Source: Sedimentisphaerales bacterium (GTDB lineage: Bacteria > Planctomycetota > Phycisphaerae > Sedimentisphaerales > SM23-30). From it: a stretch of DNA of 64,000 bases. The position numbers are program-made. Location: the NCBI GenBank assembly GCA_963663965.2, contig CAXXFK010000011.1:199667-263666 (forward strand), given 5' to 3'. Position 1 is the first letter of the stretch, and each line of letters opens with the position of its first letter. This document shows positions 60,001 to 63,000 of this stretch, piece by piece.

Positions 60001-63000
60001 TGAAGGGGCGAAAGAAGTTTGTTAAAGAGGAACGATTTGATTAAAATATTCTGTTGGCCCTTCGGACCTTACGAATACCATGACCCTGCATTCCGGAGCC
60101 TGACCCTGCCGGCCAGTTCACCGCCGGCCCCACCCGGAACCACCTACCGCCTGACCGCCATCACCCGCAGCGGCTACCGGCTGTTCCCGGAAAAACCCCG
60201 GCGACCAGCTTTTATGAATCACGGTGAATACTAGTTTAAAGACATTACCCCAAAGATCTCCTCCCATATTTCCCATAAATCCCATTATTCCCATCATTCC
60301 CATCATTCCCATCATTCCCAACCCAATTCCACCGCCATATTCACCATAACAACATACATTTCAGTACCTTATACCCACATACGTCCCATCGGTCCCATTT
60401 GTCCCATATTTAATCATAACGCAACTTAAATATATTTGTGTTTTTATTACACAATACTATATATTTTATTTGACTATATCGCAACACCAGTCTATAATCC
60501 CACAGTCGCCCCAATAGCCCCAAACCACCCGCCAACCCCCGGCGTGCCCCGCACCCACCCGGCCACGCCCACAGAGCCCTCCTGCGCATTTTTTGGGGTA
60601 GGCTGTGTGCCGGGTGCCACCCTTCAAGCGCAGCTTGTGGGTGGATTCTTCGCCTTGTGAATTCCAATATGAAATCTGGTATCCAACCAGCCAACTTGTC
60701 GTGGCTGTTTTAACAATACGAATAAAATGGAAATCAACTAACTAAAACAACCTGACATGCTGATTGTAAAAGGCCCGAAGGGCCGACGCCGGGGTCGTAA
60801 GGCCCCGGTCAGCGATAGAAGTTTAATTTTTTTAAACCCGCGCCTCTCCGAGGCGTACCGACAGGATTTCGCACCGGAGGCGAAAATTAAAACTAACCAT
60901 GAGCGCAGCGAATACCAACACAAAACGAAACAAACCCAACATGAAAAAATATCGCCCTAACCTCAACCAAGAATTGAGCTTAACAAAAAATAAAAAAATC
61001 ATCCGCCTCAAAGCGGATACAAATAATATCTCGGAGAGATCAAAAGCGCATAGCCCGCCAATTCATTGGCGGGAACACCCGAACCAGCGTAGAAAATTTT
61101 TAAACCCACGCCTCGCAGAGGCGTACCTGCAGGATTTCGCACCGGAGGCGAAAGATAAAACGAACCATGAGCGCAGCGAATACCAACATAAAACGAAACA
61201 AACCCAACATGAAAAAATATCGCCCTAACCTCAACCAAGAATTGAGCTTAACAAAAAATAAAAAACTCATCCGCCTCAAGGCGGATACAAATAATATCTC
61301 GGAGAGATCAAAAGCGCATAGCCCGCCAATTCATTGGCGGGAATACCCGAACCAGCGTAGAAACTTTTAAACCCACGCCTCGCAGAGGCGTACCGACAGG
61401 ATTTCGCACCGGAGGCGAAAGATAAAACCACCATGAGCGCAGCGAATACCAACACAAAACGAAACGAAGCCAATGATGAAAATAATGGCCCTAACCCCAA
61501 CAACGAAACGAGCTTAACAAAAAATAAAAAAATCATCCGCCTTGGGGCGGATACCACAATTTTGCATTTTAAATTCTAAATTTTAAATTTCTAAACAGGA
61601 GGTACCAACCATGTCATCGTCACTAAGGAGACTCAGAGCCAACCGTCGTAACGCCCAGAAATCCACCGGCCCCAAAACCCCAGAAGGCAAGGCCATCTCA
61701 TCCAAAAACGCCATCAAACACGGCCTCAGCGGCCAGGATCCCGCCCACCTCATCGTCCCCGGCGAATCCGAACTCACCTACCTCGAGTTCCGCGCCGCGC
61801 TGCTGCAAGACCTCAAACCCACCACCTATCTCCAGCGCCACATTGCCGACCAGATCGTCTCGGCCGCCTGGCGCCTTGAACGGATCGGCCGTATCGAAGC
61901 CGAACTGATCGACGCCCGCGTCTATAAACTCCGGCTCACCAACGAAGAAATCCGCAAAGACACCGTCATCGACCAGCCCTTCGCCCACTCCAGCATCTAC
62001 TTACCACGCCACAACGAAGTCGGCACGGCCTTCACCCTCGAAACCCCCGCCTTCAACTGCCTGGCCCGCTACGAAGCCCACCTCAACCGAACCTTCCAGG
62101 CCAATCTTAAGCTCCTGCAAAAGTTGCAGTTACAACAAAAACCAAACGAACCCAATGGATATCCCCCAGAGTACCCATTTCCCGATTTACCCCGCGTCCA
62201 CATCCCCGACCCACCCAGAATCCCCACGCACCCCAGCGAAGCCAAATTGGCCCCCGAATACATCAAAGACCGACTCCCCGAATTGATGAAAGACCACAGC
62301 GTAACTGACGACCAGGTCTTCAGTTACGCCTGCAATCGTTACGAAGCCCTCAACACGTTTGCGAACCAGAACGGCGAAGAAGCCCTCCACGCCCTCGGCA
62401 TCCCCACCAAACCCCCGGCCGACATCCCCATCCAGGAGGTTAAGAAATAAGGTAACCTGTTCTGAAAAACCATTCGTTATACAAACTTCAGACTGACCTG
62501 AAAAATCAGTCACCAGAGATTGTATGCCCAAAAATCCCTGCAACCAACTCCGACAGCCAATGAATACCCAACTCCATTAATTCCATTAATTAAAACGTCA
62601 ATATTTCATCATCGCCCGCGTCATCCCGGCCACCTGCGCCATCGGCTTAACATCATGAACCCGCAGAATATGCATCCCGGCCATCATGCAACGGCTTACC
62701 GTCGCGGCCGTTCCCCAGATACGCTCCCGTGGATCATCAATATCCAATACCTTCCCGATAAATGATTTCCTGCTGGTACCCACCAGTAACGGCACGCCCA
62801 ACTCATGAAAACGTTCCAGATTCTGCATCAATGTCAGATTATGCTCCAGCGTTTTACCAAATCCAATCCCCGGATCGACAACAATTTGCCCCCGGTCAAT
62901 CCCGCAAGTGATCGCATAGTCAATCCGCTCCTTCAACCAGTCTATAATATCATCAACCACATCTTCATACTCCGGCGCCTGCTGCATCGTCCGCGGTATT

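Follow-up and report, generated by a model that had tools for sequence, protein, structure and literature searches.

The window analysed here is a stretch of 64,000 nucleotides from a Sedimentisphaerales bacterium (assembly GCA_963663965.2, contig CAXXFK010000011.1). Its plus strand carries an open reading frame for a protein of 279 amino acids, and this gene is part of a unit of about 2.3 kb. The unit spans about 60211-62530 and consists of a left end, a promoter, an array of repeats, the gene and an 80-nt tail. The features are as follows, and the copies referred to are the 26 copies of the gene in the genome.

59928-59973, minus strand: Acido-Lenti-1 hairpin pair (37.6 bits, Rfam cut-off 37), a REP-like neighbour outside the unit proper
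60090-60210, plus strand: extra upstream stretch with an approximate start, from alignments; only in subfamily C3, C16, C42, C19_35381
60211-60232, plus strand: left-end motif T, a diverged variant here; a sharp boundary in 18/26 copies
60470-60498, plus strand: sigma-70-type promoter TTGACT-17-TATAAT behind an AT-rich tract; 11/12 consensus positions, 24/26 copies
60504-60650, plus strand: C-rich leader with a hairpin holding TGCGCA (60583-60588); as a conserved RNA it has a weak consensus fold (-4.3 kcal/mol) and hardly any covariation
60771-60808, minus strand: weak Acido-Lenti-1-like (RF01687) REP module within the array, which misses the gathering threshold (24.7 against 37 bits)
60829-61554, plus strand: tandem array of 268-nt units, two of them full and a third partial
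60928-60982, plus strand: M module 1, with motif M (60928-60938), 19 nt and the box TAAC-N17-CTTA (60958-60982)
61196-61250, plus strand: M module 2
61462-61516, plus strand: M module 3
61597-61602, plus strand: ribosome-binding site AGGAGG, at -13/-14 in 26/26 copies
61611-62450, plus strand: gene of 279 codons; core amino acids 1-176 (small-terminase-like amino acids 16-92, helical hairpin) and a lineage-specific tail
62144-62154, plus strand: motif M within the ORF (peptide NEPN), at the end of family homology, 26/26 copies
62491-62511, plus strand: right-tail inverted repeat with 8-bp arms and a 9-nt spacer
62525-62530, plus strand: right end, TGCCCA here and TGCGCA in most copies

The two full array units (60829-61096 and 61097-61364) are 95% identical, and each unit combines one M module with GNA-triloop hairpins and, on the minus strand, a hairpin resembling a terminator. 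The genome-wide survey's note had described a hairpin array 5' of the gene; a tandem array is indeed there, but it is a mosaic of the M module, which belongs to the family, and REP-type hairpins, which belong to resident Y1 transposases, and not one novel unit. The Acido-Lenti-1 look-alike of that note exists as the weak module in the array. It is not specific to the gene, as 5 of the 13 Acido-Lenti-1 matches genome-wide are near two Y1 transposase genes (at most 1 kb away). The left end, which had been thought impossible to fix, could be placed about 620 nt to the left of the earlier start by means of the promoter and motif T. The right end is sharp, as claimed before: TGCGC lies at +73/74 past the stop codon in 17/26 copies, behind the inverted repeat, whose individual base pairs are Watson-Crick in 11-14 of these 17. 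Gene-less copies of promoter plus array were found 5' of ordinary genes in the same genome, and in one gene-less unit M is joined straight to the right tail. By comparison with the Xer dif consensus, TGCGCA and TTATGTTAAAT were considered as dif-like; this was rejected, as the two lie at opposite ends of the unit and not 6-8 nt apart.

A tblastn search of the genome gave 27 matches, namely 26 full-length copies without stops or indels and one 3' fragment, and blastn added a 5' fragment. The earlier count of 26 intact 279-aa copies is thus confirmed, and the identity of 93-97% given with it holds roughly, the true spread being slightly wider. Pairs of copies differ at 33-93 of 840 nt (median 61), which is 89-96% identity, and the proteins are 92.5-98.2% identical to that of the window copy. 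Among the 26 copies dN/dS is 0.095 (dS 0.28, dN 0.027) and varies from 0.045 to 0.165 along the gene; the right tails have diverged far more than the genes. No pair is identical, the copies being 4-11% apart, unlike the active IS families of the same genome. The 26 copies recombine freely: r2 drops to 1/n past 30 nt, and the four-gamete test is failed by 76-79% of informative pairs. The same mosaicism was observed among the copies of a Bryobacterales genome (G041). The multi-copy state is supported from outside the assembly by public contigs, whose summed depth, which is not a copy number, is 70-190 across the gene and 0-8 in most of the flanking bins. The 54 neighbours of the copies are unrelated host genes, with no terminase, integrase, replicon or capsid genes among them.

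The protein belongs to a family that, clustered at 50% identity, numbers 52,884 clusters (11,311 of them at E<=1e-30), so the survey was right in assuming a large unnamed family, and right also that the window protein has no match in the family libraries (Pfam, NCBIfam and PHROG). When 120 members were compared with such libraries no Pfam match was obtained, and the only matches above noise were weak ones of 7/120 members to three TerS PHROGs (9231, 1889 and 26270), over amino acids 22-100. A sequence search of the PDB gave no transposase or recombinase match. The claim that the protein resembles no known transposase therefore stands for Pfam, NCBIfam, PHROG and PDB; the protein does, however, have a relative among phage small terminases. 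The best phage match is a gene immediately before terminase and portal in vB_BboS-125. HHalign of the family core against the small-terminase family of vB_BboS-125 gave 98.5% and E 1.5e-15 over amino acids 16-92, and the reciprocal TerS profile picked up every one of the 26 copies, with E 2-4e-4 across 25 positions; without the N-terminal motif the two profiles match only at p=0.011. These profile comparisons suggest that amino acids 16-92 are distantly related to phage small terminase subunits, a relationship limited to the N-terminal part. Like these subunits, the family has the motif TGPKTPEGK..N..KHG with the subsequent helices (amino acids 16-92) and a predicted helical hairpin. Unlike them, it has no Cys/His finger and no conserved C-terminal tail, is chromosomal and multi-copy, and at no examined locus is next to a large terminase. 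Small terminases of this type go by the label HGGxSTG. S18, H37, E52, W87, R91, Y154 and E155 are invariant or nearly so in 260 homologues, and the conserved N-terminal residues are common to the non-catalytic TerS.

Structure searches (Foldseek, VIA wide) gave no significant TerS or transposase fold, a non-match that does not exclude a family. The alignment-based model (pLDDT 74, against 44 for single-sequence AlphaFold) has no strands; Foldseek (viral, pdb) gave no match at E<=0.001, the best VIA match (Z 7.3) was to generic helical hairpins, and the ESM Atlas gave unnamed clusters only, with no named match for amino acids 1-100. The family occurs in 8/40 relatives in the order and in 6/100 genomes of a sample of the phylum, at 1 to about 75 copies per genome. 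It is carried by 3 plasmids; a pattern search found 3 viral loci, and a search of 50,697 phage records gave no match at E<=1; phrog_9231 gave one marginal match in 151 genomes of the phylum. No conserved partner gene was seen at 80 family loci, where only ERF/Rad52-DUF968 (4/80) and prmC (3 loci) recur, and the 139 neighbours of these loci include no terminase, integrase, replicon or capsid genes. Terminase_6N, the sole terminase family tested, is absent from the host assembly. A literature search, which covered mostly open-access text, found no description of the family among the papers listed.

Motif M (AAACRAASCCA, 11 nt) is present once in every array unit and once in the ORF. The window genome has 310 occurrences, grouped in 151 clusters, where 14.6 occurrences would be expected, so that the repeat is more extensive than the 48 loci reported before. 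At 97/309 M sites of this genome the layout M-N19-TAAY-N17-STTA is fixed, and elsewhere TAAN-N17-NTTA stands at +24/25 from M in 35/188 sites. An IHF-like match lies at one fixed offset at 28/309 sites, and multi-motif clusters keep one orientation in all but 2. Exact M was found 77 times in the 71.6 kb just 3' of the core of the family gene against 4 times in 362 kb of distal flank; 43/80 loci, from many phyla, have it in the tested 3' interval and 37/80 do not. It is read as peptide in three frames in 111/261 protein tails (51, 44 and 54 per frame against 1.6-3.7 in shuffled tails). Gene and motif are thus linked, and M and its fixed box of 25 bp accompany the gene in different phyla. Within the order M is amplified (17-174 hits) in 5/9 gene-bearing genomes, the window genome included, and not in the other 4/9, against 0/32 gene-free genomes (maximum 8 hits), a co-occurrence count that overstates because the compared genomes are kin. 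Y1_Tnp is present in 39/41 genomes of the order. In the phylum sample no amplification was seen in 94/94 gene-free genomes, nor in 6/6 other gene-bearing ones. Nine G041 copies that were viewed have only a variant of M, and some hosts of a single-copy gene carry up to 174 M hits. The repeat had been regarded as private to the window genome, but four further genomes of the order also have amplified M modules, whose internal box is the same. The hairpin adjacent to the ribosome-binding site matches 35-60 nt pieces in several relatives.

Gain or loss of the gene within REP mosaics was shown in a pair of Bryobacterales genomes. Two orthologous spacers of G057, with flanks 88-96% identical to those of G041, hold REPs and no gene; the empty and filled spacers measure 186 against 1090 nt and 49 against 1038 nt. 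At the first of these G041 sites the gene is present in 0/10 congeners with both flanks resolved (13 viewed). The junctions of the empty sites fall in REP sequence and not at M. No target-site duplication was found at the two filled/empty pairs, nor any consistent common flank in 18 copies. No RNA run was listed among the public runs, and three contig runs (at most 13% of words in common, locus not spanned) gave no empty-site joint; a probe for an empty site found at one locus (L160) a reversed 3' piece of the element and at another (L140) flanks on different contigs. G041 copies are bounded by inverted REP pairs. The proposal of the survey that the family is multi-copy and bounded by inverted repeats in other phyla holds in its first part; the bounds in Bryobacterales are inverted REPs and not terminal repeats of its own. 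Its small mobile element of gene and repeat likewise survives as a dispersed mobile unit, given the empty orthologous sites in a close relative of another multi-copy host.

A 316-aa Y1_Tnp gene has motif T 117 nt upstream in 6 near-identical copies and 70 nt upstream in a divergent one; inverted, T also lies 305-344 nt downstream of 4 copies. There is one motif T per cassette and none at the right end. A left-end motif common to the cassette and a multicopy Y1 transposase points to movement in trans, with this transposase as the candidate mover. As T contains TTGACA and is also solitary at some 25 loci, it may serve as a common promoter or operator and not as a transposon end. The gene, the 316-aa Y1 gene and a third passenger family have 71-75% C and 8-11% G at 4-fold sites, and nine other multi-copy families are without such strand bias (4-fold C 29-46%). 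C-GNA-G triloop hairpins in the arrays number 79 sense against 3 antisense.

We tentatively favour the explanation that the unit is a selfish DNA-binding cassette within REP/TIR mosaics of the host, which would be moved in trans by Y1 transposases and by recombination. The protein would have arisen from the small terminase subunit of a phage and would bind DNA as an oligomer, retaining the TGPKTPEGK..NA.KHG module and the helical hairpin and having neither zinc finger nor conserved C-terminal tail. It could bind M and the phased 25-bp box (IHF-like), and this binding could regulate its own promoter and array and help DNA that carries M to be copied or retained. Resident Y1/HUH transposases of the RAYT/TIRYT type, working in trans on one single strand, would cut and join, and homologous recombination between common repeats would also move units and shuffle the copies into mosaics. 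Binding, mover and strand are the parts of this explanation that we infer. REPtrons and TIRtrons, according to PMC3733652 and PMC6006769, are alike in that a gene is tied to a cognate short repeat amplified genome-wide only where the gene occurs, and in that copies lie in hairpin mosaics with no target duplication seen. The likeness to TIRtrons includes an end motif that the cassette shares with a TIR-flanked Y1 gene of the window genome, and the family gene is flanked by repeats amplified elsewhere (arrays and M clusters here, inverted REPs in G041). In contrast to both systems, the family gene is not HUH/Y1 (PF01797), with no Pfam match in the protein or in 120 members; M is a direct motif without palindromic symmetry that has a phased box, and not a tagged hairpin; and the family gene itself reaches 26-75 chromosomal copies.

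The GC skew of the genome is left unexplained by the selfish cassette. Among 15 minus-to-plus (origin-like) switches, 8 lie no more than 8 kb from a copy, each time on its 3' side, and among 10 opposite (plus-to-minus) switches none does; 5.5% of the genome is in this range. Such a switch is seen at 8/26 copies, and about half of the copies show none. Upstream 4-fold skew is negative in 22/23 copies, including 10/10 with G-rich downstream DNA (control 0.24), and the G-rich strand is leading-like in this genome. Two of the 10 opposite switches sit on the Y1 gene. No switches are evident around 20 G041 copies (plus/minus 20 kb). A bolder possibility, which we regard as doubtful, is that an escaped small-terminase gene has become a pan-bacterial minimal selfish element that recognises its own phased site and drives transfer through hijacked packaging or a one-directional single-strand process from its 3' end. 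If true, it would transfer itself and tens of kb of neighbouring chromosome, and would explain the free recombination, the amplification of M and the origin-like switches. Iteron plasmid origins, lambda cosB and P1 parS are direct-repeat sites with a phased IHF-like box and an AT-rich tract beside the gene of a binding protein. The likeness of the cassette is in layout only; unlike them it is chromosomal, in many copies and without a Rep, ParB or TerL partner. An iteron-type accessory origin, with M as iterons, an IHF box, an AT-rich tract and an autoregulated initiator gene in copies that fire, would agree with the 3'-side switches, the negative upstream skew and the leading-like G-rich strand. 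It is very improbable, since the pattern was not reproduced in G041, about half of the copies are without a switch, the two opposite switches on the Y1 gene fit rearrangement, the assembly is a draft in 42 contigs and no initiator fold was found.

Insertion sequences with MITE partners are small dispersed units with sharp ends and gene-less derivatives, and the cassette is like them in all these respects. It differs from insertion sequences (DDE, IS110, IS200/605, IS91) in having no recognisable transposase or recombinase domain (Pfam, NCBIfam, PHROG, PDB), no terminal inverted repeats of its own or target duplication, and copies that are diverged, freely recombining and under purifying selection. 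That the protein itself is a new recombinase or transposase acting at M, with gene-less M modules as non-autonomous partners, is decidedly unlikely. The seven conserved residues would suit it, as would M both 5' of the ORF and inside it where family homology stops, the gene-less unit with M fused to the right tail, and single-copy genes with many M hits, as in autonomous/non-autonomous pairs; but no catalytic fold was found, the N-terminal conserved residues also occur in non-catalytic TerS, empty-site junctions lie in REP sequence, and the copies, unlike active IS families of this genome, are 4-11% apart with no identical pair. Domesticated host paralogues, that is nucleoid or regulatory DNA-binding proteins whose promoter-array modules were recruited by host genes and homogenised by gene conversion, would account for the low dN/dS of 26/26 intact copies, the gene-less modules 5' of ordinary genes and the diverged right tails. 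They are improbable in view of the patchy presence of the family, its variable copy number and unrelated neighbours, and site-level gain or loss between genomes 95% alike. A phage-packaging redirector of the Rpp/PICI kind, without an island, is unlikely; the protein would team up with the small terminase that an infecting phage brings, the arrays of M would be pac/cos-like sites with an IHF site, and adjoining chromosomal DNA would be packaged, transduced and recombined into resident copies and repeats. The TerS homology of amino acids 16-92, the directional arrays, the IHF-like match at one offset and the free recombination argue for it. The missing C-terminal tail would fit a partner that borrows one, like Rpp, which forms a heterocomplex with phage TerS (PMC6739421). 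PICI Rpp/TerS redirectors, as the same paper describes them, are also alike in combining a non-phage element, a TerS-related DNA-recognition protein and a site of their own; unlike a PICI, the cassette has no integrase, replication module or att-bounded island and measures about 2 kb. Against a redirector are the lack of integrase, replicon or capsid genes beside 80 loci or 26 copies, the near absence of the family from viruses and plasmids, the absence of Terminase_6N (one family tested) from the host assembly, and the fact that packaging of duplex DNA leaves strand bias and insertion at new sites unexplained. An assembly artefact of collapsed or chimeric repeats from mixed strains is hardly credible. 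The assembly is a metagenome-type draft with 5.4% contamination and the SNP pattern is mosaic, but the flanks of every copy are unique, repeat families other than this one are 96-100% identical in the assembly, independent public contigs carry the same variants, and the same pattern is seen in the unrelated G041 with its megabase contigs.

The element class looks as if it has no catalogue entry yet. Paralogues that recombine like alleles of one population, and skew switches of the origin type on their 3' side, are unexpected for ordinary IS elements. As a concrete site (M and its box) and a candidate mover are named, binding and mobility are directly testable. The family fills 52,884 clusters but has no model in Pfam, NCBIfam or PHROG, so that knowledge of its mechanism would give a function to a block of hypothetical proteins that ranks among the larger ones in Acidobacteriota, Planctomycetota and Alphaproteobacteria. 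After RAYT-REP, it provides another example in which a gene and its cognate repeat in the chromosome are coupled, here with a protein that is terminase-related and not HUH.

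The gene is an ORF for 279 amino acids, which the genome-wide survey's note had presented as a multi-copy gene with tandem units on its 5' side. Both points are borne out: the host assembly (7.24 Mb in 42 contigs) contains 26 full-length copies, all free of stops and indels, besides two partial ones, a 3' and a 5' fragment, and the tandem units are present in the window. The features of the unit and its left neighbourhood are as follows.

58342-59464 (+): gene of a GntR/LacI-type regulator with a frameshift near 59207, either a sequencing error or a pseudogene
59928-59973: Acido-Lenti-1 match above the cut-off, beyond the unit
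60211: left end of the unit, set by motif T
60262-60315: 9-nt units in tandem (TCCCATCAT-like), a short repeat placed after the left motif and before the promoter; related copies differ in how many units they have
60470-60498: promoter TTGACT-17-TATAAT
61611-62450 (+): the 279-aa gene
62144: 11-nt motif M inside the gene, at the site where family homology stops

Homology between copies extends beyond the array as far as the promoter, which was found 5' of 24 of the 26 copies; one of the two promoter-less copies lies at a contig end and the other has its array broken by another element. The left end, previously thought impossible to fix, is given in 18 of 26 copies by a sharp boundary at motif T, about 170-260 nt left of the promoter. 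The sharp, hairpin-bearing right end reported earlier was recovered as an 8-bp inverted repeat with a 9-nt spacer, behind which 17 of 26 copies have TGCGC at +73/74. No target duplication was seen in the 18 copies having both ends. Five of seven further promoter matches inspected were promoter-plus-array units with no gene, and one locus joins M straight to the right tail. Other elements have inserted in or beside arrays, namely ISL3 (L111), IS66 (L125) and an unnamed near-identical ORF (L109, L112).

Any two copies differ at 33-93 of the 840 bases. By codon position (1, 2 and 3) there are 43, 25 and 161 variable columns, with dS 0.28 and dN 0.027. At distances above roughly 30 nt linkage among the 26 copies is down to 1/n, and incompatibility affects 76-79% of the informative site pairs; in the multi-copy Bryobacterales genome G041 the figure is 73-77% (15 of 20 tested copies). 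Since the remaining repeat families of the same host assembly are still near-identical, this recombination signal is not a general assembly effect, and the same observation makes an assembly artefact scarcely credible as an explanation of the cassette.

Mobility is indicated by copies elsewhere, since five genomes have between 1 and 111 profile matches each (the 111 amounting by count to about 75 loci), and by empty sites. In a relative of G041 whose flanks are 88-96% alike, two orthologous spacers contain REP sequence and no gene (186 vs 1090 nt and 49 vs 1038 nt, empty vs filled). At the first of these, 13 congeners were viewed and none of the 10 with both flanks resolved has the gene, so that gene gain is the simpler reading there. 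Two further probes gave no clean comparison. The G041 copies are placed between REP hairpins, inverted in four of nine viewed, and the empty/filled junctions fall within REP sequence, with no duplication at the junctions of the two site pairs. The congeners' version of a G041 gene spacer holds other small two-gene modules (L167, L170, L171, L176), which we take to resemble toxin-antitoxin pairs; the spacer looks like a REP-lined cargo hotspot.

Motif M, AAAC[GA]AA[CG]CCA, has 77 matches in the 71.6 kb immediately 3' of the core vs 4 in 362 kb, at 43 of 80 loci, and accounts for KRTQ, NEPN and TNP peptides in 111 of 261 protein tails. The window has one M per array unit. All 26 copies keep the M within the ORF; it changes only from C to G at the degenerate base, and the amino acid changes with it. 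The host genome holds 310 occurrences (14.6 expected). At exact spacing behind M, 97 of 309 sites carry TAAY-N17-STTA, and with one mismatch allowed this box follows 150 of 284 non-gene M sites against a background of 0.6%; in other genomes the 17-nt spacer is kept at an offset different by 5-6 nt (35 of 188 sites). In 28 of 309 M sites the second half of the module has, at one offset, a resemblance to an IHF site. The array repeat had been held to be absent from other genomes of the order. For its motif M this does not hold: M is amplified in 5 of 9 gene-bearing genomes and in 0 of 32 gene-free ones (Fisher p ~2e-4, the genomes being kin and not independent). Y1 transposases, unlike M amplification, occur in 39 of these 41 genomes. 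In a phylum sample M was amplified in 0 of 94 gene-free and 0 of 6 other gene-bearing genomes, and nine inspected G041 copies have a variant of M only.

Apart from M the array is REP-like. Perfect stems closed by C-GNA-G triloops, a well-established type of hairpin loop, number 79 sense vs 3 antisense in the arrays, a bias that fits single-stranded DNA hairpins. The Acido-Lenti-1 look-alike noted earlier within the array is indeed a weak match. Five of 13 matches in the host genome flank two Y1 transposase genes (C32:102513-103631 and C19:125714-126321), and this suggests that the motif, which Weinberg et al. list for Acidobacteria and Lentisphaerae as probably an RNA (PMC2864571), is a REP-type DNA hairpin.

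Pfam, NCBIfam and PHROG hold no family for the protein. A profile of 120 homologues recovered 52,884 clusters at E<=0.001, the region common to the family being aa 1-176 only; (nearly) invariant residues include N11, R12, N14, S18, G20, P21, N33, H37, G38, E52, P70, W87, R91 and Y154. The predicted structure has a basic N-terminal segment followed by a helical hairpin (pLDDT 74), and fold searches with it gave no informative match. The NA.KHG motif occurs in phage small terminases (TerS). Seven of the 120 members weakly match three TerS PHROGs over aa 22-100, and by tblastn two members recovered the same phage gene, which directly precedes terminase and portal genes and itself scores as TerS. 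When the family profile was compared with a profile of 120 homologues of this phage gene, the match reached 98.5% (E 1.5e-15, aa 16-92); with the N-terminal motif left out it came to no better than p=0.011. Because these matches hinge on that motif, sequence comparison identifies the N-terminal module as TerS-related, and homology of the remaining protein is possible. Members of the family are very rare in viruses and plasmids, and no neighbour gene is conserved across the loci examined. At L042, L056, L063 and L073 the gene stands behind an ERF or Rad52-type annealing protein with DUF968, and M lies 20-30 nt 5' of the start codon. Small stand-alone Bradyrhizobium proteins (L181-L207) with a Cys/His finger, HGG and the NA.KHG motif match TerS PHROG 1889 and appear to be another chromosomal use of the module.

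When all long ORFs of the host genome were clustered, 12 families of at least four copies were obtained, nine of them 92-100% identical and of ordinary composition. The other three, with 71-75% C and 8-11% G at 4-fold sites, are the cassette gene, a second unnamed family (B) and a 316-aa Y1_Tnp with seven close copies (97-99% identical) and one divergent copy (e.g. L292:1508-2455 (-), contig C30), some of which the Y1 family scan had missed. Six Y1_Tnp copies have motif T 117 nt to their 5' side, and a divergent one has it at 70 nt. In inverted orientation T stands 305-344 nt 3' of four copies, and a stricter pattern places it 5' of ten cassette-gene copies. T may be a promoter/operator, since it contains TTGACA and also occurs alone. 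The T-flanked gene matches the layout of TIRtrons as outlined by Di Nocera et al. (PMC3733652), and Quentin et al. record atypical Y1 classes from Planctomycetes and Acidobacteria (PMC6006769). The 316-aa Y1_Tnp is a candidate mover of the cassette.

Strand composition adds another dimension. Read in the gene's frame, tens of kilobases of upstream DNA are rich in C, and upstream 4-fold skew is negative in 22 of 23 copies, including all 10 with G-rich downstream DNA (control 0.24). Segmentation gave 25 skew switches on 16 contigs, 15 minus-to-plus and 10 opposite. The former are origin-like because the rRNA operon and rplB are encoded on the G-rich strand, as are 57% of coding sites. Eight of the 15 lie within 8 kb of a cassette copy, every one on its 3' side, and two more at family B bring the two passenger families to 10 of 15; nine control families have 6 of 67 copies near such switches. 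Of the 10 opposite, plus-to-minus switches none is at a cassette copy and two are at copies of the 316-aa Y1_Tnp gene. There are two dnaA genes (C22:55835 and C17:22868), one of them 32 kb 3' of a cassette copy at a skew switch. Both switch types would be expected from simple mis-joins or inversions between copies. The skew may come from rearrangement at the right end, from a directional single-strand process or from extra origins. That the cassettes serve as accessory origins could account for the 3'-sided switches; however, the 20 kb around each of 20 G041 copies did not show the pattern, and we regard this reading as very unlikely.

Our tentative preference is for a selfish cassette whose TerS-derived protein would bind M plus box and which would owe its movement to Y1/HUH transposases acting in trans and to repeat-mediated recombination. 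A packaging redirector, for which Rpp offers a precedent (PMC6739421) and which touches on published work on DNA recognition by TerS (PMC11331095), is rather unlikely. The protein is related to TerS, but the cassette gene stands outside any packaging module, and the cassette is not a PICI. It is less probable still that the protein is a new transposase acting putatively at M, and a domesticated regulator is a distinctly poorer candidate. In its behaviour the cassette resembles a REPtron or an IS accompanied by MITEs, yet family searches find in its protein no domain of the enzymes that define these. The Solibacter genome paper, in the portion consulted, reports many short repeats and an absence of strand bias and does not mention the gene family (PMC3174227). 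The literature searched leaves the family undescribed, and the database or supplements of a 2026 preprint on intergenic clusters (10.64898/2026.10.21.760802) could hold these repeats.

The survey's facts on gene and repeats thus stand overall, with left end and repeat range corrected. Its gene-plus-array unit is mobile and unnamed, and the reading is amended in that the protein appears TerS-related and part of the array is REP-like. The cassette is real, and by the tests run it lies outside the catalogued classes; its mechanism we infer. Family B (about 15 loci, 220-273 aa, 75-100% alike; e.g. L291:1378-2037 (-), contig C27), with no homologue found outside the host genome, shares the promoter type of the cassette, has M at set positions of its tail and is followed on the 3' side by M arrays; the chassis can therefore carry another passenger.
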